From contig OZ245730.1 of assembly GCA_965227145.1 (NCBI GenBank), positions 451,661 to 515,660 of the forward strand: a stretch of 64,000 nt of DNA, read 5' to 3'. This DNA is from Calditrichia bacterium (lineage in GTDB: Bacteria > Calditrichota > Calditrichia > RBG-13-44-9 > J075). Positions 34,194-63,291 of this stretch are shown in pieces; position 1 is the first letter of the stretch, and each line of letters begins with the position of its first letter. The notes below the pieces were generated by a model. That model was not told where the DNA came from. It saw only the letters and a program-made list of their open reading frames with translations, and searched no databases. The position numbers and the translations under genes are program-made.

Positions 34194-35417
34194 TTACCGG
34201 TACATAGTTATGATTTTCGGCGTGGCTGTGAGATAGGTTTCGGTCGTGACCTTCAGGTCGGTATGCCCGAGGATCTGCGAAAGGGCATACACATCCCCGC
34301 GGCGGTTCTCCAGAAAGTTGACCGCGAAAGTATGCCGGAGGCTGTGGATCGAAACGTTCTCCTGGAGATGGCACTTCATTTTGGCTACCCGGAAAAATTC
34401 GTTGACGCTGTTCCGGGAGCTGATCTCGAAAAACAGGTATCCGTCGAAGGCGCGCCGGCGCCAGGATTCGGCGTTTTTGTTTCCGGAGTCAAACAGCAGC
34501 TCGTTCAGCTTTTGGGGATCGCTCATAATCGCCCGGCGGCGTTCAATGATTTCCATAACATCGTTCACCGGCACCCAGCGGGCCTTTTCCTTGAACTTCC
34601 GGGAGCCCTTGCCAATCACCCTCAGGAAGTGCCGGGTTTCGCCGTCGATATCGTTGGTCCGGAGGCGGTTGATGTTCACGTCCAGTATCTCGCTTCTGCG
34701 GAGCCCGGTTTTTAGCCCGAACTCAAAAAAGTCGAGATGCCAGGAAACCTCGCTTTTTTCCAGATACCGGCGGATTTTTTGGATTTCGCTTTCCTCCAGA
34801 TACCTGGGCGAGGTATCCACGTTGAGCAGCGGAAAGCCGATAAACGGGTTGACAGGTATCAACCCGAGTTTTCTGGCATGGCTGAACGCCGAGCGCAAGG
34901 TGCGCAGGTGGACGTTGATCGATGTTGGCTTATAGGGCTTGCCGAATTTGGTGGTGGAGCCAAGCAGGGTATCAATAAAGTGCTGGACGGCGTTCCGGCT
35001 GATTTCCGAAAGCAGGCGCTGCTCCCCAAAAACGGTGATGAGCAGCTTGGTGCTTTGGTTGTCCGTGTCGAATGTGTTCTGGGAAATGTTGCCTCGCTCG
35101 ATTTCCTTTTCCCGGTGGTCCAAGTAGAGCCTGCGGAACTTGCCGAGCGTCATTTTATTCAGATGCGGCAGGTATTCCTTTAGGTTGAAGGACTCCAGCG
35201 CCACCTCGCCCTGGATTTTCCGGAGCGCCTTTTCTGCGACGGCTAGCGCCTTACGGGTGTCGGTTCGGAGGTCAACGTGCTTAATTGTAATGCTTTTGGT
35301 GGAGCCGTCTTGAAATGTAATGAGAATATACGGGCGCTTTCTGCCGGTCCACGGCAGGCTTGCCAGAACCTGCTCCGGCGATGGCTTCAGCTGGACATAG
35401 CGAATCCGGTTATTCAT
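34194..35417 (-). CDS. int: tyrosine-type site-specific integrase
   Basis: C-terminal catalytic motifs (HSLRHTFAV…LGHTDLKVTTETYL). 407 aa. Lies adjacent to the tRNA. Confidence 0.85.
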   Translation of the reverse strand: MNNRIRYVQLKPSPEQVLASLPWTGRKRPYILITFQDGSTKSITIKHVDLRTDTRKALAVAEKALRKIQGEVALESFNLKEYLPHLNKMTLGKFRRLYLDHREKEIERGNISQNTFDTDNQSTKLLITVFGEQRLLSEISRNAVQHFIDTLLGSTTKFGKPYKPTSINVHLRTLRSAFSHARKLGLIPVNPFIGFPLLNVDTSPRYLEESEIQKIRRYLEKSEVSWHLDFFEFGLKTGLRRSEILDVNINRLRTNDIDGETRHFLRVIGKGSRKFKEKARWVPVNDVMEIIERRRAIMSDPQKLNELLFDSGNKNAESWRRRAFDGYLFFEISSRNSVNEFFRVAKMKCHLQENVSIHSLRHTFAVNFLENRRGDVYALSQILGHTDLKVTTETYLTATPKIITMYR

Positions 35418-36466: not shown

Positions 36467-37138
36467 TTAACTATTAAATATCTGATTAAAATTATAGAAG
36501 CAAGTCGGTTCGCTATTGTTCTTATTGTACTGCTTAAATTTCTTTGTGAGATTTGAAATAGCAATATACTTTGACATACTGTCACAGGTCTTTGATTTTC
36601 TTGCTTTTTGTAAAATTTTTAGTTGCACATCTTCAATTGAAATTAGACCAACTCCATTATTTTTCAAGATTTGGAGATCAACATTTTTAACATATCTTGA
36701 ATGTATTGCAAGGTAAGAATAGTCCGAAAAGTAACTATACCTAAGTGCTTGGTAAAAGCCCCCCCGCCAATCTTTAACTTTTACTTCTACCGAAGAAAGA
36801 GAGGGTAACTTTGAAAAATCTATATAATAATTAATAAAAATCGAGTTGTTGTTTACTATTAATAAATTTTTGCTAATTAGTTCTTTGACTATGTTGTCTG
36901 TTTTTCTTTTTGCTAACTTAGATTGGCTGTAAAGGTCATAAGTGTTTTCAATGCGATTTTCAACAATTGCGTTATATATTTTCAAGGTATAATAATCGTT
37001 GATATATGGGCTGTTGACTTTTTTATCCAAGAAAGCGATATCCGGAATTCCTATACCCATCCTAACCTCATTGGCATAGACAACTTTGCAACGTTCCAGA
37101 ACGTTATTAAATGTTGCGACTAGCTCATTTTCTTTCAT
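36467..37138 (-). CDS. hypothetical protein, possible PD-(D/E)xK-type nuclease, co-operonic with kinase fusion
   Basis: Starts 3 nt after the kinase stop on the same strand and is AT-rich. Candidate motifs GIGIPDIAF…VEVKVK…QALRY (hPD…ExK…QxxxY), but the spacing is atypical. Confidence 0.5.
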   Translation of the reverse strand: MKENELVATFNNVLERCKVVYANEVRMGIGIPDIAFLDKKVNSPYINDYYTLKIYNAIVENRIENTYDLYSQSKLAKRKTDNIVKELISKNLLIVNNNSIFINYYIDFSKLPSLSSVEVKVKDWRGGFYQALRYSYFSDYSYLAIHSRYVKNVDLQILKNNGVGLISIEDVQLKILQKARKSKTCDSMSKYIAISNLTKKFKQYNKNNSEPTCFYNFNQIFNS

Positions 37139-37140
37139 TA

Positions 37141-39198
37141 CTATATACCATAAAGTTTTCTTAGTTTTTCAATTACTAACTGCCAGTTATTCAAAAATTG
37201 ATAACTTTCAGGCTTAAATATAGCCTTAAGAGCCTTGTAATAATTTAAACTTTCGACTATATCGTTATTGAGTTTATCCAATCTTTCTGTCGTTGTTTTT
37301 TGTAACAATATATCAATTTCATTTTGGATACGATACAAAAAGTGCTTTTTGGTGTTTTTGTCAATAATTATGTCTTCAGGTGGTTTTCCCTTGCAATAGG
37401 GACAATTGCAGGCCAAGTTTTTTCCAGTGGCTCCTGCGAGAATTGCAAAAAGTTTTGATGGGTCTTTTCGATTAATAGGGACATTCGCAAAAAGCTCAGG
37501 TATATAATATCTAACAAATAAATTATATGAATCTGTTCTGTCTTTGTATAAATCCTCATAAAAACTTTCAAATCTTGCGCTACCAGACTCAAAGCCATGG
37601 ATTCCAAATGCAAGTAGTAACAAGCCAATTAAGCCTACTCTACCGGCAATGACTGGTTTACCAGAAGAAACTTGTAATGTTCTGAGTGTCTGAATGAAGT
37701 GGTATAGCTCTGAAGTTGATGATTGATGATTTATGCAATCGACATAAATAAGATAGCCGTCACATGGGAGACCAGTTAAAATGTTAATAAAATATTCTTT
37801 TTCAACCTTACTTGTTAATATCTCTGAACGAATTGAAAAACCTGCGATTAGAGGAATTGAAATATTGTTTTCATCTAGATACATCCTAGTTTGTTTTATT
37901 AGGCGATAATCGACATTAAACCAGTTTAGCTGCCTATCGTGTTTTATTGTTATGTGTTCAGAATTATTACTTACGTGAAAGGGGCTGACTAAATAAGTGG
38001 GATCATGTTCCAGTTGAGTATCAATAACGCTTTTTATATATTGGTATCTTTTTGTGTCATCATCTAAGTCAGATAACTCGATTTTTGAATAATTACTAGG
38101 CGCATAAGGTAGTTGTGTTAAACCTTTTACATCTGAAAAAGTATCATATGCTAAACGCATTGTTGCAGGGTCAAACATTAAATTTATTTTGGGGTTTTGT
38201 AGAATTTTTAGCAAATTTTTTTGTTGATATTGATGGTTGATCGGGAAAATAGCATTTTTTATTTTATACCCGTCATTGAGGTACTCAGTTAATACTTGCT
38301 TCTCGTTCCAAGTTCTCAAATAAAGCCCTGGTTCAAAGTAATTACGATTATGCTTTGGTAGTTGGTTATTTGTGATATTAAAGTATTTTTTTATATCAGA
38401 TATCGAATTTGGTCGATTATGTACAGTTTTTTCAAGAAGATGATAAATCAACTTTTCATAGGACGCATCTAAATCTGGTCGATATAATAATATAGAATCC
38501 GGCCTATTATTTAGAATTCTATAAAATAATTCAGGAAGTGAGGTTGCTCTCCCATAGGGACTTACTTTAGTAAGAATTTCAAAGTATAACACTCCTAAGG
38601 AATAATAATCAGAACGGTAATCTATATTTTTTGAATCATTTATTTGTTCTGGTGACATATACAGTGGGCTACCAATTTGGCTTCCTGTGCTGGTTAGCGA
38701 GGAATAATCAATAAGCTTTGAAAGCCCAAAGTCGAGAAGTTTTATTTCACCTGCGTTTGTTAAGTAGATATTCTCAGGCTTTAAGTCCCTATGAATTATT
38801 CCCTTAGAGTGTATTGCATTTAATCCTTCTAGTATTTGAAAAAAGATGTCCTTTTCATTAATTTGTCGATTATTCCTTATTATATCACGGATATCTGAGC
38901 CCTCAAGGAATTCCATCACGACATAGATATAAATTTGTGAATTTTCTATTAATTCTCCACTCTCAATGTATTTGATCACATTTGGGTGATCGATTCTTGT
39001 TAAGGTTTCAATCTCTCTTGAAATACGGTTATTCGCCCCTCGTGTAAATTCCTCATAAACATATTCTCTATTAAATATTTTAATGGCATAGGTTTTAGAA
39101 GTAGTATCCCTAATGCATTTATAGACTGATCCAAATGCACCTTTTCCAATAAAAGAGGATATTGAATAGCATCCAATTTTTTTTCCTAACATTACCAT
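37141..39198 (-). CDS. Hanks-type Ser/Thr protein kinase fused to a C-terminal tRNA-guanine-transglycosylase(TGT)/DpdA-like domain
   Basis: Kinase subdomains: GKGAFGSVYKC (G-loop), YAIKIF (VAIK), HRDLKPENIYL (catalytic loop), DFGLSK (DFG), GSPLYMSPE (APE). The ~400-aa C-terminal domain contains LMFDPATM (cf. TGT DSGGYQ), GKPVIAGRVG…GIHGFES (cf. TGT KPxYLMGVG…GIDMFD) and a Zn-type CNCPYC (CxCxxC) followed by HFLYRIQNEI (cf. TGT His and HNL helix). Confidence 0.7.
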   Translation of the reverse strand: MVMLGKKIGCYSISSFIGKGAFGSVYKCIRDTTSKTYAIKIFNREYVYEEFTRGANNRISREIETLTRIDHPNVIKYIESGELIENSQIYIYVVMEFLEGSDIRDIIRNNRQINEKDIFFQILEGLNAIHSKGIIHRDLKPENIYLTNAGEIKLLDFGLSKLIDYSSLTSTGSQIGSPLYMSPEQINDSKNIDYRSDYYSLGVLYFEILTKVSPYGRATSLPELFYRILNNRPDSILLYRPDLDASYEKLIYHLLEKTVHNRPNSISDIKKYFNITNNQLPKHNRNYFEPGLYLRTWNEKQVLTEYLNDGYKIKNAIFPINHQYQQKNLLKILQNPKINLMFDPATMRLAYDTFSDVKGLTQLPYAPSNYSKIELSDLDDDTKRYQYIKSVIDTQLEHDPTYLVSPFHVSNNSEHITIKHDRQLNWFNVDYRLIKQTRMYLDENNISIPLIAGFSIRSEILTSKVEKEYFINILTGLPCDGYLIYVDCINHQSSTSELYHFIQTLRTLQVSSGKPVIAGRVGLIGLLLLAFGIHGFESGSARFESFYEDLYKDRTDSYNLFVRYYIPELFANVPINRKDPSKLFAILAGATGKNLACNCPYCKGKPPEDIIIDKNTKKHFLYRIQNEIDILLQKTTTERLDKLNNDIVESLNYYKALKAIFKPESYQFLNNWQLVIEKLRKLYGI

Positions 39199-39369
39199 CC
39201 CTTTCCTTTAAAGAAGTCGTTACACATATTTTTAATACTACTGAAAAAATTTAAGTTCTTCGAAAGATCCTCATAAGTATTAAATGTTTGGAGTTTTTAG
39301 AATTAGATAAAAAACAAAGCTTAACAAGAATAATTCTTTGGGTTATTAAAAGTTAAATAAAAGAGGATT

Positions 39370-40365
39370 TCAGTCCTGCCAGGCAGTCAGAACTCCATTC
39401 TCAAAGTAAACATAAGTGCGATAATAAACCCACTGCTCATGAACTCCCCACGATCCAACCGACCTGTTAATATCACGAGGATCACCCCAGCTTGCACGTA
39501 CCATTTCCCTGCTCATTCCAATATAAATTTCTCCATTTAAGATTTGATTTTTTCTAGAACGTGATAATTTTGGATTGTCTCTAACGAATTTTTGTCTTCT
39601 TAAATCACTTTCAGAAATTAAAGCCACTTCACGATAGCTTACAAGATCCTTGCTTATCCAAGCATCTGTATACTTTTGTTTTAACTGTTTAAGGGTAGAC
39701 GGGGTAGTGTTATTATTTTTAATACGAATCTTAATCCAGCTTCCCGCTTCAAGATTTTTATAAACAATTTCTCCTTGCCTAAGAGTTGATACAATTTTGC
39801 CACCAGTTGATGATGTATCTCGTACATTGGCAGTTAGTGAGCTAATCCATAACGGTGTTGATTCATACTCAATGTCAAGTTTTTTGGCATTAGTGCTCTC
39901 GGCTTTTCGGTCTATTGAGCTTTTAAATGTGCCCTCATTATTAACATGAAAGCTTAACTCTCGTTTGATAGATGCAAGTTCATTTTGTAGTTTTGTAAAT
40001 GAGGATATGTCTGGTGAGTCTTTAATGAATGATTCAAAAATAAAACCCTTTTTACCTTGAAACTCAACAAAGGCATACTTTTGTGATTCATGTCTGTTTT
40101 CAATAAAACGAAATAAATGGATTTCATCTCCGGAACTAATTTTAGCAATTTTTTTTGAACTACGTGATCCTTCTCTGAATAAACTCGCGCCATATACCAG
40201 CTTGACGGTTAGCCCTTCATTATTGATCCTATTAATTTGTGTTTCTAATTTTTTTTCAAGAAGTGTTAAGCTATCAAGTTTAGCCACATATAAGCGATTT
40301 GCTACGTCGGAGTACTGCGCATGGCAAATCAGGCTAACAAATAACAATAATATCGTAATTCTCAT
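39370..40365 (-). CDS. secreted protein with C-terminal BamE/SmpA_OmlA-like domain
   Basis: Signal peptide MRITILLLFVSLICHAQ. C-terminus GMSREMVRASWGDPRDINRSVGSWGVHEQWVYY…NGVLTAWQD resembles the BamE fold signature. AT-rich. Confidence 0.5.
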   Translation of the reverse strand: MRITILLLFVSLICHAQYSDVANRLYVAKLDSLTLLEKKLETQINRINNEGLTVKLVYGASLFREGSRSSKKIAKISSGDEIHLFRFIENRHESQKYAFVEFQGKKGFIFESFIKDSPDISSFTKLQNELASIKRELSFHVNNEGTFKSSIDRKAESTNAKKLDIEYESTPLWISSLTANVRDTSSTGGKIVSTLRQGEIVYKNLEAGSWIKIRIKNNNTTPSTLKQLKQKYTDAWISKDLVSYREVALISESDLRRQKFVRDNPKLSRSRKNQILNGEIYIGMSREMVRASWGDPRDINRSVGSWGVHEQWVYYRTYVYFENGVLTAWQD

Positions 40366-40418
40366 CTTTTCCCTCGCCGAATGACAAAAAATTAGATATT
40401 TATTTATTTCAAAAGTCC

Positions 40419-40862
40419 TTATCTCCCCAAAAACTTCTCAATCTCCTTCCGGTCCGGATCGGTGATGCTGCCGAGCTGGGTCAGCTTTGCCTTCGTCTCG
40501 AAGATGACCTCCTCGCACTGCTGCAGAGCTTCCGGGCTTACGGCGTTGGATTCCTCCGCGTCCATGTGAAATCCCAGCATAAAGTTCAGAAAGTTGTTCA
40601 GGATGTGCTGGCTTGACCTAACGGACGCCAGAAACACCTCCCTTTTTTCCTGCTCCTTTTTCGCCATCTGCTCAAAATGGTGCTTGATAAGTATATATAG
40701 CATCGCAGTAGTTGCGACGACAAAAAGCCACCCCTTGAACGTTTGGGCTACGGTAACAAGATCAAGGGTTTTAAATAAAAGAGCTACGGCTTTATCTGAA
40801 AGCAAAATCCATATAGTGCCAATCATGAAATAGATCAGCGGGATTTTAAGCTGAGGCTTCAT
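40419..40862 (-). CDS. small membrane protein (2 TM helices + helical C-terminal domain)
   Basis: Hydrophobic helices IYFMIGTIWILL and WLFVVATTAMLYILI. 147 aa. Confidence 0.4.
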   Translation of the reverse strand: MKPQLKIPLIYFMIGTIWILLSDKAVALLFKTLDLVTVAQTFKGWLFVVATTAMLYILIKHHFEQMAKKEQEKREVFLASVRSSQHILNNFLNFMLGFHMDAEESNAVSPEALQQCEEVIFETKAKLTQLGSITDPDRKEIEKFLGR

Positions 40863-51053: not shown

Positions 51054-51266
51054 ATGATCAAAGTCAAGGCATTGAAGCAGTTCGGCGGGGAAGCCTACGA
51101 ATTCGAGTTTACCGTTCGGGAGTTGAAAGATATCAAGCGAGATCTGATCCGGGCGGTTTTTGCGTATAACCTGTCGGTTGCCAGCTGCCGGTCGGATGCG
51201 ATTACCTGGACGGCGGAGATGCTGAACTACTCGGAGCGGTGGGTTTGGGAGTGTGTGCGGGAGTGA
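51054..51266 (+). CDS. small hypothetical protein
   Basis: ATG at 51054 preceded by gggaaagg; 70 aa. Confidence 0.3.
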   Translation: MIKVKALKQFGGEAYEFEFTVRELKDIKRDLIRAVFAYNLSVASCRSDAITWTAEMLNYSERWVWECVRE

Positions 51267-51458
51267 AATAGTGAACATTTTTATTGACAAAAGGCGAAAA
51301 AAAACCTTACCTTTAGTGAACAAAAATTCACACAATTTGTTTTGTTAAATGCTTCTCTGGTTCTGACGAAAATTTCATTTTTTCTTAATAATTTTTCATG
51401 AATTTATCTCTTCACTATGCTTTCAGTATTGAAGGTCTAGCTTTTTGAAGAGGGGGAT

Positions 51459-52370
51459 ATGATTAACTATATTGATGGAAAGTTTTTTGCTTCGCCTGCT
51501 CAAGTGTTTGTAAATACTGTGAATACTGTTGGTGTTATGGGCAAAGGTGTTGCAAAGGTATTCAAAGATATTTATCCCGATATGTTTAAAATTTATCAGA
51601 AATTATGTGATTCTCATGAGTTAGGGATTGGGAAATTACAGCTATACAGAAGCTCAAATAAGTGGATTTTAAACTTCCCAACTAAAAAAGATTGGCGGCA
51701 TCCTTCGAAGGTAGAGTATGTAGAGGCCGGGTTAAAAACATTTGTGGATTCATATGTTGATATGGGTATAAATAGCATTGGGTTTCCTGCGCTTGGATGT
51801 GGGAATGGCGGGCTTGACTTTGAAAAGCAGGTTAAACCACTGATGGAAAAATATTTGTCAAACCTGCCAATTGCCATTTTTATTTATCCCCATAAACATA
51901 ATTATGGGCTACCTGAGCATACAGATAAAGCTGGTATGAAAAAGTGGCTTCAGTCGGAACCGTACTTTCTGCCATTTTCCGAAGTTTGGAAGGACTTGGT
52001 GAATACTCTTGAAAGTCGAAAGCACTTTAATACGCTTGACAAAAATACGCCATTTGAAGCAATTTTGGATAATTTGGCAGTTATCAAAATAACTACATCA
52101 TGTGATGTTCTCTATGTCCACAAAGAAGATACAATGGACTTTTGGCAACAAATAAGAAGCTACGGTTTCATATCAAGTATGGACGCACCCTCGGGACTAA
52201 ACCAAATTTTTTACTATTTATCCCCGATTTTTAGTGTACTAGGCTATATCAAAGTTATCAGATTAGTTAATGAAAATGTTGCAAGAAGCATTTATGGCTT
52301 ACAATACTTTGAACCTTACGTTTATAACAATATGATTTATGACGCTGATGAACATTTAAATTTCTATTAA
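51459..52370 (+). CDS. macro-domain (ADP-ribose binding/hydrolase) protein with ~150-aa C-terminal extension
   Basis: Macro motifs VFVNTVNTVGVMGKGVAKVF (cf. VNAAN…GGGV…AI) and NSIGFPALGCGNGGLD (cf. IAFPAISTGVYG). AT-rich cassette. Confidence 0.75.
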   Translation: MINYIDGKFFASPAQVFVNTVNTVGVMGKGVAKVFKDIYPDMFKIYQKLCDSHELGIGKLQLYRSSNKWILNFPTKKDWRHPSKVEYVEAGLKTFVDSYVDMGINSIGFPALGCGNGGLDFEKQVKPLMEKYLSNLPIAIFIYPHKHNYGLPEHTDKAGMKKWLQSEPYFLPFSEVWKDLVNTLESRKHFNTLDKNTPFEAILDNLAVIKITTSCDVLYVHKEDTMDFWQQIRSYGFISSMDAPSGLNQIFYYLSPIFSVLGYIKVIRLVNENVARSIYGLQYFEPYVYNNMIYDADEHLNFY

Positions 52371-52519
52371 AACAACAAGGAAAATGTCTGGTATTTGATC
52401 AAAACTCTTTTTACGCCGTTGATTCTTTCTAAATAATAACAAGCAGTTGAATTATTGGATCAATTTTCATAAATATGCTTAAGAATTGAAACAAGAATAG
52501 CGTGGAGAATATTTGCTTG

Positions 52520-53443
52520 ATGAAAAATGGACTATATATGGATTCAGAACATATTTTAATAAAAGGGGACACCCTTAAAAATTTAAAAAAAATCGAATCG
52601 GACAAATTCGATTTAACAATCACGTCTCCACCTTACAACATTGGTAAGGCATATGAAACCAAAATGTCAATTGAAAAATACTTAGAGCTCCAGGAAGAGG
52701 TGATTGCGGAGCTGGTTAGAGTTACGTCGAGCCGAGGTAGCATTTGCTGGCAGGTTGGTAATTATGTGGATAATGGTGAAATTTTTCCTTTAGATATTTA
52801 CTACTATCAAATTTTCAAAAAGCTAAATCTAAAGTTAAGAAATAGGATAATCTGGCACTTTGGACACGGGCTGCATGCGTCTAACCGATTTTCGGGTAGA
52901 TACGAAACTATTTTGTGGTTTACAAAAACTGATAACTATATTTTTAACCTTGATGACGTTAGAATCCCCTCTAAATACCCCGGAAAAAGACACTTTAAGG
53001 GCCCAAACAAAGGCAAGCCATCTGGTAACCCAAAGGGTAAAAACCCTTCGGATATATGGGAAATCATTATGGGCGACTGGGAAAAGGGGCTTTGGGATAT
53101 TCCTAACGTAAAATCAAATCATCCTGAGAAAACGTCTCACCCCTGCCAGTATCCGGTTGAGCTAATTGAAAGATGCATATTAGCTCTAACTAATAACGAC
53201 AGCTGGGTTTTAGATCCATATGTAGGGGTAGGATCGACGGCAATAGCAGCGATCAAAAACGGGCGTAGTGTAGTCGGGATTGACAAAGAAGAAAATTATA
53301 TAAAAATTGCCAACGAGCGAATTCGGGACTTCAAAGTTGGAAAACTTAGACTAAGACCTATCAATAAGCCCATACACAAGCCAAGCCCAAATGACAAAGT
53401 TGCGCGAATTCCGGACGAATGGAATATAGGTAACCCAAAATGA
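52520..53443 (+). CDS. beta-class amino-DNA methyltransferase (N4-cytosine/N6-adenine, SPPY motif)
   Basis: FDLTITSPPYNIG catalytic motif near the N-terminus. AdoMet motif in the C-terminal part (VLDPYVGVGSTAIAA). Start ambiguous (GTG 52502 / ATG 52520 / ATG 52538). Confidence 0.8.
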   Translation: MKNGLYMDSEHILIKGDTLKNLKKIESDKFDLTITSPPYNIGKAYETKMSIEKYLELQEEVIAELVRVTSSRGSICWQVGNYVDNGEIFPLDIYYYQIFKKLNLKLRNRIIWHFGHGLHASNRFSGRYETILWFTKTDNYIFNLDDVRIPSKYPGKRHFKGPNKGKPSGNPKGKNPSDIWEIIMGDWEKGLWDIPNVKSNHPEKTSHPCQYPVELIERCILALTNNDSWVLDPYVGVGSTAIAAIKNGRSVVGIDKEENYIKIANERIRDFKVGKLRLRPINKPIHKPSPNDKVARIPDEWNIGNPK

Positions 53444-54054
53444 GAATATCCCAAAAGTATTCACACCTGAACGGCGAGGAGTTTCTGATTGTGCATCACA
53501 ACGACATTTATCAAGAAATAAAGGATGTCGTTAGTTCGATAGATGCTAATGTGTATAGGACAAAGGTTAGCCAGGAAAAGAGATCGCCTGGTAAGCTACT
53601 TTATAGCCCGGTTGATATCAACCAAGCTCTAAAGGAAGAGTTTGCAAGTAGAGGTTGGAACGAATCAAGGTATTCCTACTACATAACGCTTAACAGGCAA
53701 CTCATGGAAGAAAGCCTGAAGATGGATATACAGGAACAACGGAAGTTCTTCATTGAAAATGGTGACGCCGAGCCGATTTACTCATACAATCAAACAGACT
53801 TTCTTAAGGACCTGATCGCAATAGAAGTTCAGTTTGGTAAATACGCGTTTGTCGCGTATGATCTATTTGTTAAGCATATGCTATTTTTTTCCGGCGGAAA
53901 AATTAATCTGGGAGTAGAAATTCTACCAACCAAGGTAATGCAGAGAGAAATGTCATCCGGAATTGCCTATTTCGAAGGCGAGGTCTATAACGTAATGCGT
54001 CAAGGAAGAACAAGCCCCCCCGTTCCTTTACTCATATTAGGGATTGAACCGTAG
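53440..54054 (+). CDS. BglII/BamHI-family Type IIP restriction endonuclease-like protein
   Basis: Start overlaps the MTase stop (ATGA). The segment LKDLIAIEVQFGKYAF closely resembles the BglII active-site strand (…RDTLVEVQFSNYPF…, Glu/Gln pair). The N-terminus is also BglII-like. Confidence 0.6.
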   Translation: MRISQKYSHLNGEEFLIVHHNDIYQEIKDVVSSIDANVYRTKVSQEKRSPGKLLYSPVDINQALKEEFASRGWNESRYSYYITLNRQLMEESLKMDIQEQRKFFIENGDAEPIYSYNQTDFLKDLIAIEVQFGKYAFVAYDLFVKHMLFFSGGKINLGVEILPTKVMQREMSSGIAYFEGEVYNVMRQGRTSPPVPLLILGIEP

Positions 54055-54417
54055 GTAAGCCATTCAGCATTCATAAAGGAATATCGGTCGTAGAAAGCTG
54101 CTTTATAAAAAATTGACACTCGCCTATTGCTTTCGTCATCAATCAGGCCGCTCCACATGAAATATTCCGTTTTTTTCCATCCGTCAGGAAGTTGTGTTTG
54201 GCAGAAGAGCGGGTCACCCGCCATCTGCTCGCCGAATACTATGTTGGTGGAATCCGGTTTTTCCACATTGGAGCACTTTATACCTGCTTTAGAATAGAAA
54301 ATGGATGGTTACCTGGCATACAAAGTTGTGTATAAGCACGTTCTCAATTTATTCTGAACCTCACTTCATAAAACCCCTCCATATCTGCCTTATGTTTCTC
54401 CTAAAAAAGGAGAAGCC

Positions 54418-54708
54418 ATGGATTTACAACAAATTTTCGTTCAGCTGATCGGGTTACTGTCGCTGATCGTGGGCAATACGCTTGCCGACGAGATCAGCGA
54501 GGAAACGCGGGCGTTGCTCCAGCAGGTCGTTCCTAACGTTTACTCGGCGACCAAGTTTGCGCTGCCGCCCATCGTGATCAAGACACCAAACGTCATCGAC
54601 GACGCCGGCAATATGGAGGTCTCGGAGATCTGCGAGGTGATTGCCGCGAAGTATGGGCTGGAGCTGAATCCGGAAAACGTCAACCTGAAGCTGCTGTTCA
54701 AAAAGTGA
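54418..54708 (+). CDS. hypothetical protein
   Basis: 96-aa ORF with RBS aaaaggagaagcc. Confidence 0.35.
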   Translation: MDLQQIFVQLIGLLSLIVGNTLADEISEETRALLQQVVPNVYSATKFALPPIVIKTPNVIDDAGNMEVSEICEVIAAKYGLELNPENVNLKLLFKK

Positions 54709-55115
54709 CGGGCAGCTTCCACGACCGAAGCCCGGCAGACGCGCGCGGCTATTTGCTCTCCGAGTATGGCTACGGCTTCCATCTTGGGGAGCACTTCAAC
54801 CTGGGCGAGCTTGCCTCGCGGGACGGGGCGGATTTTGTGATCGTTCACCCGGACCTGGTCTGGCTGCTCGAGGCGATACGGGCGGAGTTTGGCGTAATCC
54901 ACATAAACAGTGGCTACCGGACGCCCATGCACAACGCCCGAATCGGCGGGAAGCCGTGCAGCTACCACATTATGGGCATGGCGGCGGATATCGTTTCCCG
55001 GCGGGCAAAGCCCTCCGATGTTGGCAGGTTTGCCGAAAGCCTGGGCGCCGGCGGGGTCGGCATTTATGCATCATTTACCCACGTGGATGTGGGCAAATCA
55101 TTCAGGAGGTGGTGA
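54705..55115 (+). CDS. peptidase M15-like (zinc D-Ala-D-Ala carboxypeptidase fold) protein
   Basis: Segment INSGYRTPMHNARIGGKPCSYHIMGMAADI matches the H…D…H metal-ligand pattern of M15/YcbK-like peptidases. Confidence 0.55.
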   Translation: MTGSFHDRSPADARGYLLSEYGYGFHLGEHFNLGELASRDGADFVIVHPDLVWLLEAIRAEFGVIHINSGYRTPMHNARIGGKPCSYHIMGMAADIVSRRAKPSDVGRFAESLGAGGVGIYASFTHVDVGKSFRRW

Positions 55116-55275: not shown

Positions 55276-55595
55276 TGCAGGAGGCGCTGAACATTGCCGC
55301 AGAGCAGGCGCCGACCCTGTTTGTGCTGGTTTTTCTGGTGGTGATCTTCATTTTGTCCACCCGAAAAACCACAAAGTCGTTCCTGGAGCACCTGGACCAT
55401 AAGGACATCCGGACCGAGCAGATGGTGGATAAAATGGCGGAAACGGTCGAGCGAAACACCGACAAGATGAACGCCGCCATCGAGAAAAACACCGACAAGA
55501 TCAACTCGGCGCTGGAGCGGAATACCGAGATGCTCACGCATGTGCGGATAGTCCTGGACACCAAAAAGCAAAGTGGGAGAAATGAGCAAGCATAA
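55275..55595 (+). CDS. small membrane protein with repeated ERNTDK units
   Basis: TM helix LFVLVFLVVIFIL. Internal repeats VERNTDKMNAAIEKNTDKINSALERNTEM. Confidence 0.35.
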   Translation: MQEALNIAAEQAPTLFVLVFLVVIFILSTRKTTKSFLEHLDHKDIRTEQMVDKMAETVERNTDKMNAAIEKNTDKINSALERNTEMLTHVRIVLDTKKQSGRNEQA

Positions 55596-56112
55596 CCTGA
55601 AGTATGTCTCGCCGCACGAGATCACGCCGTATTATAACAACCCGCGAAACAACGACGCGGCGGTCCCGAAGGTGGCGGAATCGATACAGGCTTACGGATT
55701 CCAGCAGCCCATTCTGGTGGATGAAAATATGGAGATCCTCGCCGGCCACACCCGCTGGAAGGCGGCGCTGGTCCTGAATTTGGAGAAGGTGCCGGTGGTG
55801 GTTTCGCATGGGCTGGACGAGAAGCAAAAGCGCGCCTACCGGATCGCGGATAACCGCTTTGGCGAGCTGGTGGACTGGGATTTCCAGAAGCTGTTTGTGG
55901 AGCTGAAGGACCTGGACGGGATGCCGGTGGGCTTTACAGCGGAGGAGCTGGAGGCGAAAATCGGCGGGGAGAACGATCCTTTTGACGACAAGGGCATCTC
56001 GGATATGAGCCAGTATGGCGTGATCATCATTTGCGACGACGCGGCGCATCAGGAGAAAGTTTACACGGATCTGTCCGACGCCGGCTATACCTGCAAGGTG
56101 GTGGTGACATGA
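55573..56112 (+). CDS. ParB-like nuclease (ParB/Srx) domain protein
   Basis: Segment QPILVDENMEILAGHTRWKAA matches the ParB N-terminal domain signature (…DG.HR..AA). Confidence 0.7.
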   Translation: MGEMSKHNLKYVSPHEITPYYNNPRNNDAAVPKVAESIQAYGFQQPILVDENMEILAGHTRWKAALVLNLEKVPVVVSHGLDEKQKRAYRIADNRFGELVDWDFQKLFVELKDLDGMPVGFTAEELEAKIGGENDPFDDKGISDMSQYGVIIICDDAAHQEKVYTDLSDAGYTCKVVVT

Positions 56113-56804
56113 TTATCCAGGTGCGCAACAAAACGAAGAATTTCAACGGCTACCGGGCGGCGCGGGTTAAGTCCCTGTTCAACGCTGAGCGCGGCGATAC
56201 TTTCGAGCTGGACGCCAACCTGCCCATTGAAGACCTGGACTGGCAGATCGGGCTGGTCGTTGGCGGCAGCGGGTCGGGCAAAACCTCCATCGGGCGGGCG
56301 CTATTTGGCGGCGGGAAGCTGGTCGATTTGTATGCCGGCTGGGATCCGGATTTGCCGATCGTTGAGGCGATTTCTCCGGAAAGCGATTTCGACACGATCA
56401 CCGGCGCTTTGGCGAACGTCGGGCTGGGCGATGTGCCCAGCTGGCTGCGACCGTTTCATGCATTGAGTAACGGGCAGCAGTTCCGGGCGGGGCTGGCTCG
56501 GGTGATTGTCGAGGCGCCGGATCAGGCGGTGATCGATGAATTTACGTCGGTGGTGGATCGCCAGATCGCCAAAATCGGCGCGATGGCGTTTGCCAAGGGC
56601 TGGCGCAGAAACAAGGGAAAGCAGATTGTTTTGCTCTCCTGCCACTACGATATCGTTGAGTGGCTGCAGCCGGACTGGGTATTTGATACCGGCGCCGGCG
56701 AGCTTAAAAAAAAAGCCAAATCGGGGAGCGCCCCAGCTTCGAGCTGGAAGTTTGGAAGGTCAACGGCGCTTACTGGAAGCTTTTTAAGGAGCATTACTAT
56801 TTAG
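56109..56804 (+). CDS. ABC-type ATPase domain protein (probably continues by frameshift into downstream GNAT frame)
   Basis: Walker A (GGSGSGKTS), ABC signature-like (LSNGQQFRAGLARVIV), Walker B (AVIDEFTSVVD). The frame terminates 90 nt after an A9 run. The GNAT frame is open from 56708. Confidence 0.6.
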   Translation: MIIQVRNKTKNFNGYRAARVKSLFNAERGDTFELDANLPIEDLDWQIGLVVGGSGSGKTSIGRALFGGGKLVDLYAGWDPDLPIVEAISPESDFDTITGALANVGLGDVPSWLRPFHALSNGQQFRAGLARVIVEAPDQAVIDEFTSVVDRQIAKIGAMAFAKGWRRNKGKQIVLLSCHYDIVEWLQPDWVFDTGAGELKKKAKSGSAPASSWKFGRSTALTGSFLRSITI

Positions 56805-56812
56805 ACCTGCCC

Positions 56813-57226
56813 ATGCCGCCGGCGTCGGAGTATTTCGTTGGGACGGTGGACGGCGAGCTGGTGTCGCACCTGGCGGTTCAGCCGTTTTTCACCGCCAACG
56901 CCTACCGGGCGACCCGGCTGGTGGTCATGCCTGAGTGGCAGGGCGCCGGCGTCGGGACGAAGTTTCTGGAGTATGTTTGCGAGCTGCACAAGCAGGGCTT
57001 GGGTCGCTGCGAGAGAAGGCTTCCGACCCTGTTTCACACCAGCCACCCGCAGCTGATCGGCTACCTGAAGCGCAGCCGGAAGTGGGTGCTGAAGTCCCAG
57101 CAGATTTTTGGCGGAAACAAGGCAAAGAGCGCAAGAAGCCTGACCAAAGCCGGCTCGAAAATCACCTCCGGCTATGGCGGGCACTTCCGGGCGGTGCAGG
57201 GATTCAAATACATTGGAGAAAAATGA
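56813..57226 (+). CDS. GNAT-family acyltransferase domain (open frame extends upstream to 56708)
   Basis: Acyl-CoA binding motif (MPEWQGAGVGTKFLEYV) and the beta-strand pattern of GNATs. Confidence 0.55.
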   Translation: MPPASEYFVGTVDGELVSHLAVQPFFTANAYRATRLVVMPEWQGAGVGTKFLEYVCELHKQGLGRCERRLPTLFHTSHPQLIGYLKRSRKWVLKSQQIFGGNKAKSARSLTKAGSKITSGYGGHFRAVQGFKYIGEK

Positions 57227-57915
57227 TCGGCGTAATGACAGAGCAGGATGCAACAAGCCTTTTTGAGTCCCGAAAGGCAGCAAAGCCCTTCCGGGTCTTC
57301 ATCAGCGGGCAGAAGTTTTTCGGGCAGGAAGTCCTGCAGCTTTGCCTGAATTTTGGCTTTGATGTCGCCGGCGTTTGCTGCCCGGTGGGCGACAAGTACC
57401 TGGGCAGGCTGGCAGCGCTGAACGGTATCCCCGTGATGCCATCGGGAAGCCTGACGGCGGAGACCATGCCCGACCGGGTCGATCTGGGCATTGCGGCGCA
57501 TTCGTTTGACTACATCGGCAGGCGGACGAGATACCGGGCGAGGCTCGGCTGGATCGGCTATCACCCCAGCCTGTTGCCGCGGCACCGGGGGCGCTCGAGC
57601 ATCGAGTGGGCGTTGCGGATGCGGGATATCGTCACCGGCGGGACCATTTACTGGCTGAACGACGGGATCGACCGCGGCGATATCGAGCGGCAGGGCTGGA
57701 TCTGGCTGGATCACTCCAGGACTGCAGCCGAGGTTTGGCGGGGCGAGCTGCTCCCGCTGGGGCTTCGCTTGATGGGCGAGGCGCTTTCTGATATTTCCCG
57801 CGGCGTGGTCAACCGGCAGCCGCAGGATAACCGATTTTCAACCTTTGAGCCTTCGCTGGAGGGCATCAGGGATATCTACAAACCCGATATGTTAATGCTT
57901 ACAGATGGCAGATAA
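57226..57915 (+). CDS. formyltransferase, Fmt/PurN/ArnA N-domain-like (catalytic domain only)
   Basis: Colinear with Fmt (RVFISGQKFFGQEVL…; GIPVM; LGWIGYHPSLLPRHRGRSSIEWAL; GGTIYWLNDGIDRGDI; QPQDNRFSTFEPSL). SLLPxxRG signature. Catalytic His and Asp present; the Asn of the N-x-H pair is replaced by Gly. Confidence 0.8.
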   Translation: MGVMTEQDATSLFESRKAAKPFRVFISGQKFFGQEVLQLCLNFGFDVAGVCCPVGDKYLGRLAALNGIPVMPSGSLTAETMPDRVDLGIAAHSFDYIGRRTRYRARLGWIGYHPSLLPRHRGRSSIEWALRMRDIVTGGTIYWLNDGIDRGDIERQGWIWLDHSRTAAEVWRGELLPLGLRLMGEALSDISRGVVNRQPQDNRFSTFEPSLEGIRDIYKPDMLMLTDGR

Positions 57916-61208: not shown

Positions 61209-62702
61209 TCATCTTACATTTTTCACGCAGCGGATGTATAAAATATCGTTTTGAGAGGCAACAGCGGACCAGGTGCCGTTATCTCCATCAGCTATTTTTG
61301 TCATAATCGGGATTTGATTATTATTCTTTGGCCCCCACCACCCGCTTCTTTTTCCAAGGTAATAAAATTTTCCATTCCATAGCCATCCACCGGGGCGAGC
61401 AGAAAAGCCGGTTGAATTCGTGGCTTTACCATTGTTTGGCCAGTAATCCCCTGTTTCTCTTTTTTCTCTCAATTGATAAGCCGCAAATGTTAACCCTTTA
61501 GCACCCGGTTCTATCGTTATACCATCTACTTCTTTATCATACCATTTACGTAAAACCAATTCCCAATCCTCTTGGCCGGGAATTCGCCATCCGTTTGGGC
61601 AGACATCGCAATCTTTGATTGTGGTCCAATTGTAGAGCGGTCCATATACAACGCTGTTGCTGCTTTTGGGCGAATTATCGTGCCAATACATGGCCGCTTT
61701 GCTGTCTTTTTCATCTAAATTCACACGCTTGATATCTTTGATTGTTTGTGTGGAAGCATCCCACCACCGGCGTGCCCGCAGATTCTCTGCCATCCAAAAT
61801 CGATTGTCAATTTTTACAACCCGATAGAACGGATACAAATCAATTTTCGCCAAATTGTTGAGAATCCGTTCATCAAAAGATTTGATCCTGTTGGGTATGG
61901 CTGCCGTTATTTTTGTTAATGTTTCCTGTGCGAAACGATCATTTCTATATTTAACAACGAGGTATGCGACAAAACTTTCAGCAACATCTTCCCTGCATTT
62001 AAAATCAAAAGCATACTTTGAAATGTACATGGGATCATCGTTTTGAATTTGTTGCCATTCTTCCTTACAAACTTCCCCTTCATTGTAATATAAATAATCC
62101 AAGGCAGCATGGCATGACTCGTGAATCAAGGTTTCTTCTTCAACTTTTCTTCTTTCATAGTCCCTTGAATGTTCTCCATCAACTTGTAAATCTAACCACC
62201 CGACATTCCGGTTGCGATTACCCCCCCAAGCCAAATCGCCTTTCATTAGATTAATATGGTTAACGCCTTCACGTAAAAAGGCAGGAATCCTTCCCATCAT
62301 TGTTGCATATTTTATGGCAAGAGTTTTGGCATCTGCTTGATCTGGATAATCGCTCTTTCTAATATTTATTTTTGAGGTTATATCGTCATCATATGTAATG
62401 CTGAAAACATAAGCCTCAGGGTAATCCCAAGCACCAGCGCCATTGTTAGCCTCCCTATCGTACATTTCAACCCTTGGTTCAATTGTTGGGCCGGAAATTG
62501 TTTTATAGGTGGTTAGGTCGTCTTTATTCACCAGGTCCGAATATATAAAAGTTGTTCCATCTTCGGACATGTAATTTTGGGTTGTCTGGGCTTGCGTTTT
62601 ATAAGTTGAGAGAAAAAAACAGCACGCTACCAATCCTAGTAAGATTGTATTTTTTAAGATACATATTTTACGTTTTTTTTCAGTCCTTATTAATATACCC
62701 AT
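61209..62702 (-). CDS. lipoprotein with HExxH metalloprotease domain and C-terminal Fibrobacter succinogenes major paralogous (FISUMP) domain
   Basis: Lipobox LLGLVACC. Zinc motif LIHESCHAALD. C-terminus …WMAENL…YNW…CPNGWRIPGQEDWELV…TGFSARPGGW… matches the FISUMP pattern. The upstream in-frame extension to 62774 is probably not coding. AT-rich. Confidence 0.6.
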   Translation of the reverse strand: MGILIRTEKKRKICILKNTILLGLVACCFFLSTYKTQAQTTQNYMSEDGTTFIYSDLVNKDDLTTYKTISGPTIEPRVEMYDREANNGAGAWDYPEAYVFSITYDDDITSKINIRKSDYPDQADAKTLAIKYATMMGRIPAFLREGVNHINLMKGDLAWGGNRNRNVGWLDLQVDGEHSRDYERRKVEEETLIHESCHAALDYLYYNEGEVCKEEWQQIQNDDPMYISKYAFDFKCREDVAESFVAYLVVKYRNDRFAQETLTKITAAIPNRIKSFDERILNNLAKIDLYPFYRVVKIDNRFWMAENLRARRWWDASTQTIKDIKRVNLDEKDSKAAMYWHDNSPKSSNSVVYGPLYNWTTIKDCDVCPNGWRIPGQEDWELVLRKWYDKEVDGITIEPGAKGLTFAAYQLREKRETGDYWPNNGKATNSTGFSARPGGWLWNGKFYYLGKRSGWWGPKNNNQIPIMTKIADGDNGTWSAVASQNDILYIRCVKNVR

Positions 62703-63291
62703 CCATGTGCCTTTTTTTCCCATGCCTGTTGGAATACTATCCAACTTAATTTTTACTTGCGTAACTCGTTTCATACATTTGCCTCTTCTCTTTAGGTTAT
62801 TGTTGCCATAATCCTGATCAATGAAAGACTATGATGGGTTCATAACAGTTATTTTCAAAATGCTGTATGTGGCATGGGTAAGAGATTTTAGGTTTTTCAG
62901 AGTTTAAACGGCAGATGGATTATTAAAGCGAATATTTTCCGGTTCGTCATATAAGGCTGGTTTTCTTATAAAGGTAATTCACCAATATTTTGGAGATGCT
63001 GAACCCAGATTATCCAGGATTAAAAACTATTTCCGAGGTTTTCGCTTTTAACGAGTGCGAATTTTAGTAGAGAGGATATTGCTAAAACTAATTATACCGT
63101 AATTACGCGTTTTTGTCAAGTAGAAATCTGGCTCTGAAGGTTTTATTTTTTTTGCTAAGAAAAAGCTTGTAACAATTGGGTAATTTGAATCAGATCCAAC
63201 GATATAATATTTTTTCATAATATGATTGCGACTTCATATATCTTCAATTATACGCTTATAACTTTCTCCTGCGCTAACAAAGGAGTAAGTT

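Follow-up and report, generated by a model that had tools for sequence, protein, structure and literature searches.

Why would a prophage carry the antitoxin of a toxin–antitoxin module with no toxin beside it? The question is raised by a 64,000-nucleotide stretch (hereafter, the window) of contig OZ245730.1 from a Calditrichia bacterium (assembly GCA_965227145.1), in which an open reading frame (ORF) encoding 303 amino acids runs from ATG to TAA at exactly 51459-52370 on the plus strand by ORF calling. The protein contains the motifs VNTVNTVGVMGKGVAKVF and FPALGCGNGG, and the original prediction, made from the letters of the DNA, took it for a phage macrodomain protein that might counter host ADP-ribosylation. 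We find an orphaned DarG-type antitoxin gene (51459..52370, +), an assignment that draws on the ORF, on matches to DarG and Macro hidden Markov models (HMMs) and on a full-length alignment of the family (A1). The gene is the leftover of a prophage-borne defence cassette whose toxin gene has been replaced by a restriction–modification (R-M) system.

The gene sits in AT-rich DNA as first described: a 3-kb island of low GC (0.33-0.42, with 0.55-0.61 in the flanking DNA), with prophage early and replication genes on its left and a type II R-M pair on its right. The window holds the prophage's integrase (34194-35417), S24 peptidase, helix-turn-helix repressor and AAA/SNF2 replication-recombination genes, as well as an M15 peptidase, ParB, the terminase subunits and the portal protein. 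The flanking DNA encodes a thymidine phosphorylase, and proteins at least 90% identical to it come from Calditrichia/Calditrichota sources.

A macrodomain antitoxin and its family

The N-terminal half of the protein (residues 1-150; 51459..51908, +) is a macrodomain of the DarG/TARG1 class. It matches Pfam Macro (PF01661) over residues 18-123 with 59.7 bits, against a gathering cut-off of 22, and the PADLOC DarG model over residues 1-151 with E=2e-56, so the macro fold that the motifs had suggested lies far beyond chance. The NCBIfam antitoxin_DarG model (NF048014) gives 182 bits, under its cut-off of 250 and with only profile positions 1-156 of 338 matched, whereas the MacroD-type ADP-ribose-binding model (NF001666) gives 25.4 bits, far under its cut-off of 246. 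On this difference a MacroD/YmdB classification was rejected, and the choice between DarG and MacroD falls to DarG. Compared with PDB profiles, a profile of 48 full-length relatives (A1) finds the DarG macrodomains of Thermus aquaticus (5m31/5m3e; E=3e-50) and Mycobacterium tuberculosis (2e-48), and TARG1 at ~1e-12; its alignment with 5m31 runs through FPTKKHWR and GCGNG. In the AlphaFold model of the window protein (mean predicted local distance difference test score, pLDDT, 79.5), the N-terminal half is placed by Foldseek on the Thermus structure 5m3e with E=8e-17, a root-mean-square deviation of 1.5 Å and 42% identity, and TARG1 structures come next after the DarG macrodomains (22-24% identity, E ~1e-10).

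The window protein keeps all 54 family-invariant columns, among them N19, N22, the loop G25-V-M-G-K-G30, K76 in FPTKK and the loop G113-C-G-N-G117. The catalytic-type K76 and both glycine-rich loops, in invariant or near-invariant columns, are intact, so the prediction does not founder on a defective loop. Human TARG1 (OARD1), the terminal ADP-ribose glycohydrolase, belongs to the same macrodomain subclass but is a eukaryotic single-domain enzyme that acts on protein and nucleic-acid ADP-ribose and has no toxin partner.

The window protein does not have a stand-alone single-macrodomain architecture. As the prediction proposed, a second domain follows: residues 157-285 (51927..52313, +) are predicted to form an alpha/beta domain and are modeled confidently, with pLDDT mostly 76-95 by block and a dip to ~65 near 241-250. 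Residues 152-303 have no family match in Pfam, PADLOC, NCBIfam or PHROGs; residues 157-285 have no PDB sequence match, and their best Foldseek hit in the PDB reaches only E=0.015 with a TM score of ~0.2. We rejected the idea of a diverged canonical DarG C-terminal domain: BLAST clustering parts window-type from canonical C-terminal domains completely, and hhalign gives a probability of 1% between the window-type domain (A2) and the canonical domains from toxin-then-antitoxin loci (A3). The domain is specific to a sizeable family, occurring in 217 clusters (50% identity) of a library of 1.84 billion representative proteins, essentially only behind a macrodomain and starting near residue 152 of proteins of ~305 residues. 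We presume that it interacts with the toxin.

That toxin is a DarT (Pfam PF14487) of ~330 residues, encoded directly 3' of the macro gene in every close relative with a readable contig. Directly downstream DarT genes are found in L001-L008; relatives with an adjacent DarT share 83% (P0002, the L005 antitoxin), 62% (P0005), 60% (P0006) and 52% (P0040) identity with the window protein, and in close relatives the start of the DarT gene abuts or overlaps the end of the macro gene. To these we added 160 further loci from IMG/VR and GTDB genomes, surveyed with an iterated DarT HMM. Sixty-five carry the window-type C-terminal domain, and a long DarT lies directly downstream in 60 of the 63 that are informative. 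In another 55 the C-terminal domain is that of canonical DarG, and upstream of nearly all of them lies a canonical DarT of ~200 residues; many full-length DarG genes on viral contigs had appeared to be orphans, an idea rejected once the iterated HMM found DarT upstream of nearly all. The remaining ~40 are single-domain macro proteins of 143-165 residues, mostly on viral contigs and without DarT, which resemble the AdfM type discussed below. Toxin-less members of the two-domain family thus number three of 63 informative loci (~5%), or four if both Traorella copies are counted. Chromosomal orphans also occur in L117 (Bryobacterales) and L128 (Anaerolineae).

Against NCBIfam toxin_DarT, whose cut-off is 150 bits, the long DarT reaches only 34-56; it covers the entire DarT fold and has N- and C-terminal extensions, with ~100 extra residues at the C-terminus. 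Its profile is closest to Thermus DarT (7omv; E=3e-33), with E. coli DarT1 (8baq) much weaker at E=2e-6; the glutamate of the catalytic site does not vary, and the long DarT accounts for at least 878 clusters at E<=1e-20. Seven IMG/VR viral contigs (L009-L015) hold the complete macro-then-long-DarT pair, which makes this subtype recurrent (pro)phage cargo and not a chromosomal system only. Homologues of the window protein are indeed phage-associated, including a tblastn match in the chimallivirus 201phi2-1, so the prediction stands on this count also. Databases label the relatives generically, as ‘O-acetyl-ADP-ribose deacetylase’ or ‘phosphatase’.

Together, these features mark the family as a DarTG2-like subtype in which the gene order is reversed, the second domain of the antitoxin is a different one and the toxin is extended. 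It shares with DarG2 of the DarTG2 systems of T. aquaticus, M. tuberculosis and enteropathogenic E. coli the macrodomain class, the catalytic lysine, both glycine-rich loops, the two-domain layout and a DarT neighbor closer to DarT2 (7omv) than to DarT1 (8baq). Unlike DarG2, it has a C-terminal domain not related to the canonical one that binds DarT, its proteins measure ~305 rather than ~340-390 residues, the antitoxin gene precedes the toxin gene instead of following it, and the DarT partner, ~330 residues with its extensions, is missing from the window. The window protein would therefore be expected to work like DarG as a member of a distinct DarG-like subfamily, currently orphaned and lacking three features that define DarG in current models: a full-length equivalog score, a C-terminal domain of the canonical kind and a neighboring darT gene. 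No name for this subtype was found in the literature searched; we rejected ‘DarG3’ for the window-type family because in the literature that name denotes the ARH-type protein of DarHTG.

Replacement of the toxin gene in a cargo slot

What became of the toxin is visible in a 2.3-kb contig from a sibling phage (L005; Logan SRR12358675). Its first 31 nucleotides match the end of the phage gene upstream of the macro gene in the window, blastn aligns it with 51234-52364 at 83% identity, its macro gene corresponding to 51459-52364, and its last 201 nucleotides correspond to 54316-54516 at 96%. Between the two matches L005 holds a darT gene (L005:1146-2141) encoding 331 residues, where the window instead has a 1.9-kb R-M cassette. 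A complete macro-DarT pair therefore occupies in L005 the same slot as the macro gene and R-M system of the window. The L005 DarT keeps the glutamate aligned to the catalytic site of Thermus DarT (7omv) and looks like a live toxin.

The breakpoints are well defined. On the left (52364/52365), homology to the L005 macro gene stops 6 nucleotides before the stop codon of the window gene, and the last nine codons of the L005 gene, which encode poorly conserved and disordered residues, are replaced by Tyr-stop. The inserted type II cassette that replaces darT (52365..54300, +) is absent from L005 and from the sibling contigs L171, L173, L175 and L176. It encodes an N6/N4 DNA methyltransferase of 313 residues from a GTG start (52502..53443, +; alternative ATG at 52520), with matches to Pfam N6_N4_Mtase (E=3e-54) and PADLOC MTase_II (E=3e-80), and a BglII-family type II restriction endonuclease of 204 residues (53440..54054, +), with matches to Pfam Endonuc-BglII (E=1.5e-28), phrog_28079 (E=8e-76) and, over residues 1-204, the 203-position PADLOC REase_II profile (E=2e-78). 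Both proteins are full length. An 88-residue ORF on the minus strand (54000-54266), overlapping the 3' end of the endonuclease gene, has no Pfam or PADLOC match and may be either a real gene, such as one for a controller protein, or spacer DNA.

Beyond the cassette, the 3' end of darT survives. The remnant (54301..54357, +) comprises the last 18 codons and the TGA stop, in frame with the end of L005 darT, and 49 of its 57 nucleotides are identical to it: L005 reads MDDSLACKVVYKHVLNLF and the window MDGYLAYKVVYKHVLNLF. The final 16 nucleotides, from 54342, are also common to the L171/L173 backbone, and LACKV.Y is the C-terminus of an unrelated bacterial DarT in L001 as well. No credible DarT occurs elsewhere in the 64-kb window, where tblastn with two long DarTs gave nothing below E=0.008. 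The macro-R-M adjacency itself appears in no other of 176 loci, and a single copy of the arrangement (P0001, a one-member cluster) was found among 15 billion proteins.

The comparison with L005, the darT remnant and the lack of a DarT in the window together show the gene to be an antitoxin that became an orphan when its toxin gene was displaced, an origin in which we have high confidence. The suggestion that the gene might belong to a toxin–antitoxin pair therefore holds for its past, since its relatives are paired with DarT, and fails for its present, with only the 18-codon remnant left. The proposal of an independently acquired anti-defence gene gives way to that of a leftover from the prophage's own defence cassette.

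Sibling phages, found in Logan and ENA assemblies through a conserved 96-residue flanking protein and an M15 peptidase cluster, place this replacement in context; a search of IMG/VR with the flanking M15 peptidase and a 121-residue early protein found no close siblings. The last conserved backbone gene on the left of the slot (51054..51266, +) encodes 70 residues from an internal ATG, and homology to sibling backbones ends at 51267, right after its stop codon. L171 and L173 are 97% identical to the window as far as this point by blastn. The end ...GTGTGTGCGGGAGT(G/A)A is common to L005, L171 and L176, the more distant L175 is ~81% identical there, and all diverge beyond it. In the siblings, cargo begins no more than 1-2 bases from the stop codon of the upstream gene, and backbone homology returns at window position 54342. 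The first conserved backbone gene on the right (54418..54708, +) encodes 96 residues, with 99% protein identity in L171-L174 and 72% in L175, and is followed by the M15 peptidase gene (54705-55115).

Four other cargoes occupy the slot in sibling phages, making five with the window. Besides the macro-DarT pair of L005, these are a 519-residue pentapeptide-repeat protein and a 298-residue protein in L171/L173 (97% backbone identity; L171:3290-5748); ORFs of 120, 187 and 64 residues with a 308-residue HNH_2 protein in L176 (L176:6977-9476); and a type III R-M system, three unannotated proteins and a DUF3560 protein in L175, a Calditrichia metagenome-assembled genome (MAG) with ~69% backbone identity (L175:2041-9859). 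No PADLOC model matched the L171 cargo proteins, and the cargoes of L171, L176 and L175 are candidate unknown defence systems. Synonymous divergence (dS) between the window and L171 is 0.05-0.18 in the backbone, whereas that between the macro genes of the window and L005 is 0.75. The cassette alleles are therefore much older than the split of the backbones, and the cargo has been exchanged by recombination. The slot is a variable cargo hotspot with rapid turnover.

Possible present function of the orphan

Does the orphan still do anything? We propose that the gene was the antitoxin of a DarTG-type toxin–antitoxin or defence module and that the R-M cassette took the place of darT, sparing the antitoxin gene except for its disordered tail. 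The orphan would still be made from its own upstream region and would still be an active ADP-ribosylglycohydrolase. It could then serve as a stand-alone immunity factor that reverses DarT modification of DNA and possibly also sequesters toxin, to the benefit of the phage or lysogen when it meets related DarT toxins, for example from sibling prophages in the same Calditrichia hosts. Its mode of action would be that of the published orphan antitoxins AdfM and AdfN. Taken whole, origin and present-day function together, this explanation stands at roughly even chances, and the retained anti-DarT immunity on which it depends could equally be true or false.

The state of the gene and the behavior of its relatives favor retained function. 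At columns conserved in at least 90% of the family, the window protein deviates six times only, always conservatively (L>F, E>D, H>D, A>G, L>I, V>I), and the H>D change is common to it and its paired sibling. Between the window and L005 macro genes, the ratio of nonsynonymous to synonymous divergence (dN/dS) is 0.12 overall, 0.06 in the macrodomain and 0.19 in the C-terminal domain. The two toxin-less copies in Traorella MAGs (L131:1482-2270 and L132:5977-6768) encode 253-256 residues with a shortened C-terminal domain; no darT remnant lies near either, their genomic contexts differ and only the gene itself is shared, with dN/dS of 0.09 at a dS of 0.70. The purifying selection on these copies indicates that orphans of this family can be retained by selection. 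(The L132 gene lies just downstream of a 180-residue ORF.) Moreover, an apparently live cognate toxin in a sibling phage from related samples supplies a direct selective reason to keep the orphan.

The means of expression may also have survived. The cargo-specific region upstream of the macro gene (51268..51458, +), found only in L005 among the siblings and there ~75% identical in the window-L005 alignment, is still present in the window, and a ribosome-binding site, GAGGGGGAT, immediately precedes the ATG. Two direct repeats of TAGTGAACA start at 51269 and 51314, 45 nucleotides apart (51269-51331), the second within the palindrome GTGAACAAAAATTCAC. L005 retains the two repeats despite the low overall identity of the region, and together with the palindrome they may form an operator of the cassette. 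Matches to a sigma-70-type promoter upstream of the macro gene were no more frequent than expected from shuffled DNA.

Several points weigh against continued function. We infer the expression and activity of the orphan from its sequence. The low dN/dS relative to L005 may have accrued largely before the gene lost its toxin, and no second macro-R-M copy was found from which the orphaning could be dated. Orphans are rare in the family, at three of 63 loci (four with both Traorella copies), so fixation of the orphan state is uncommon. At conserved columns the window protein shows twice as many deviations as the median, and it lies slightly further from the outgroups than its paired sibling does, mainly in the C-terminal domain. 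AdfM and the ~40 surveyed toxin-less macro proteins of viral contigs are single-domain proteins. Our search for DarT covered the 64-kb window, out of a 6.28-Mb host genome, and the fast turnover of the slot makes a recent relic entirely possible.

Such a relic is the strongest alternative: an antitoxin recently orphaned by R-M recombination, with no selected function now and decay not yet begun. The sharp breakpoints and the surviving tail of darT suggest a young event, and the slot has held five cargoes among phages whose backbones differ by a dS of only 0.05-0.18. The rarity of orphans, the slight excess of substitutions at conserved positions and the occurrence of macro-R-M as a single copy in 15 billion proteins point the same way. 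Set against this, the ORF is complete, no invariant residue of either domain has been lost and the deviations are conservative throughout; the breakpoint left the folded part untouched and brought the frame to an immediate close; strong purifying selection acts on other orphans of the family; and an antitoxin gene is cheap, with a clear benefit where sibling phages bear the cognate toxin. We consider the relic a serious possibility that falls short of even.

It is improbable that the protein is instead a working antitoxin in trans, with its DarT partner elsewhere in the host chromosome or prophage. The stretch examined is a small part of the host genome and DarT toxins of this subfamily are widespread, with their 878 clusters, but 60 of 63 loci have the toxin gene immediately next to the antitoxin gene, usually overlapping or abutting it, no DarT was found in the window, and the remnant there shows that a local partner was lost, not moved. 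Equally slight is the chance of a general macrodomain hydrolase not aimed at DarT, whether a MacroD/YmdB-type O-acetyl-ADP-ribose deacetylase, a protein de-ADP-ribosylase acting against protein- or RNA-targeting ADP-ribosyltransferase defences, or a degrader of ADP-ribose-derived immune signals, possibly cooperating with the R-M neighbors: macrodomains are versatile and the generic database labels would allow it, but the MacroD-type model scores 25 bits to DarG's 182, the nearest structures are DarG macrodomains (42%) and then TARG1 (22-24%), the family is tied to DarT genes and not to other transferases, and the macro-R-M adjacency is unique to the window among 176 loci.

For the anti-DarT role of the orphan there are published precedents. 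AdfM, a phage macrodomain, strips DNA of the ADP-ribose added by DarT2 and rescues DarT2-intoxicated cells (PMC13309987). Like the window protein, AdfM (PhiKZ gp104, from a chimallivirus) is phage-encoded and DarG2-like and has no cognate toxin, and the proposed mechanism, enzymatic removal of DarT-added ADP-ribose from DNA, would be the same. AdfM differs in that it is reported as a macrodomain protein that lytic jumbo phages encode and import into their phage nucleus, whereas the window protein is a two-domain antitoxin of a temperate phage, whose descent from a resident toxin–antitoxin cassette is directly visible. The orphan NADAR antitoxins (AdfN) of T-even phages counter DarTG1 (PMC11825919). 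AdfN, DarG1-like, is likewise a phage orphan, an antitoxin-like ADP-ribosylglycohydrolase that reverses DarT modification; its fold is NADAR rather than macro, its target is the guanine modification of DarT1, and the phages are inferred to have co-opted it from bacteria, whereas the window gene was left over when the toxin was lost from the phage's own cassette (PMC11825919). By analogy with AdfM (PMC13309987) and AdfN (PMC11825919), an anti-DarT counter-defence role for the window protein is plausible.

A bolder reading is that the window and L005 capture the birth of a phage counter-defence gene. The toxin would have been lost to the incoming R-M system, and the two-domain antitoxin would have come to confer cross-immunity to the DarTs of sibling prophages against superinfection, with an uncharacterised macro-type DarTG subtype (antitoxin-then-toxin, with a new toxin-binding domain and a 330-residue DarT with extra terminal regions) as its parent. 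We put this forward tentatively, as on balance doubtful.

Other possibly variable regions of the prophage and wider meaning

Three further regions of the prophage may be cargo or variable in content. A first low-GC island (36467-40862, −; GC 0.32-0.37) adjoins the integrase and S24 peptidase genes and encodes a 685-residue protein with an N-terminal Ser/Thr kinase domain, matched by PADLOC mad6 (E=7e-64) and PD-T4-6 (E=1e-60), the other ~400 residues having no family match. Also in this island are ORFs of 223 and 147 residues without family matches and a secreted SH3-domain protein of 331 residues; it is probably another defence cargo. A third low-GC insert (61209-62774, −; GC 0.37-0.43), right after the portal gene, encodes a 521-residue protein with a signal-peptide-like N-terminus. 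Between its portal and Mu-F genes L176 has instead PfkB, NUDIX and radical-SAM genes and a 268-residue ORF, so this position looks like a second variable cargo slot. Lastly, the block at 55573-57915, between the lysis-like M15 peptidase and the terminase genes, encodes ParB-N nuclease-like, ABC-ATPase-like, GNAT acetyltransferase and formyltransferase-like proteins. Its counterparts are a methyltransferase, PAPS reductase and ParB in L175 and a C5 DNA methylase in L176, and it may be a variable DNA-modification module.

Phage macro and orphan anti-DarT factors are an already published kind (AdfM in 2026, AdfN in 2025), and the novelty here lies in the two-domain architecture, in an uncharacterised parent subtype and in a visible route to orphanhood in a prophage cargo hotspot. 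How phage counter-defences arose in evolution is often not known, as published work on anti-DarTG factors points out (PMC11825919). The window and L005 form a natural before-and-after pair for an orphan antitoxin arising inside a phage genome, in a prophage slot that exchanges defence cargo rapidly; the pair offers a snapshot of evolution rather than a new mechanism. The locus also draws attention to a DarTG-like subfamily that is sizeable and uncharacterised, with 217 clusters of the C-terminal domain and at least 878 of the long DarT, whose presumed toxin-neutralising domain differs from that studied in Mycobacterium and Thermus.

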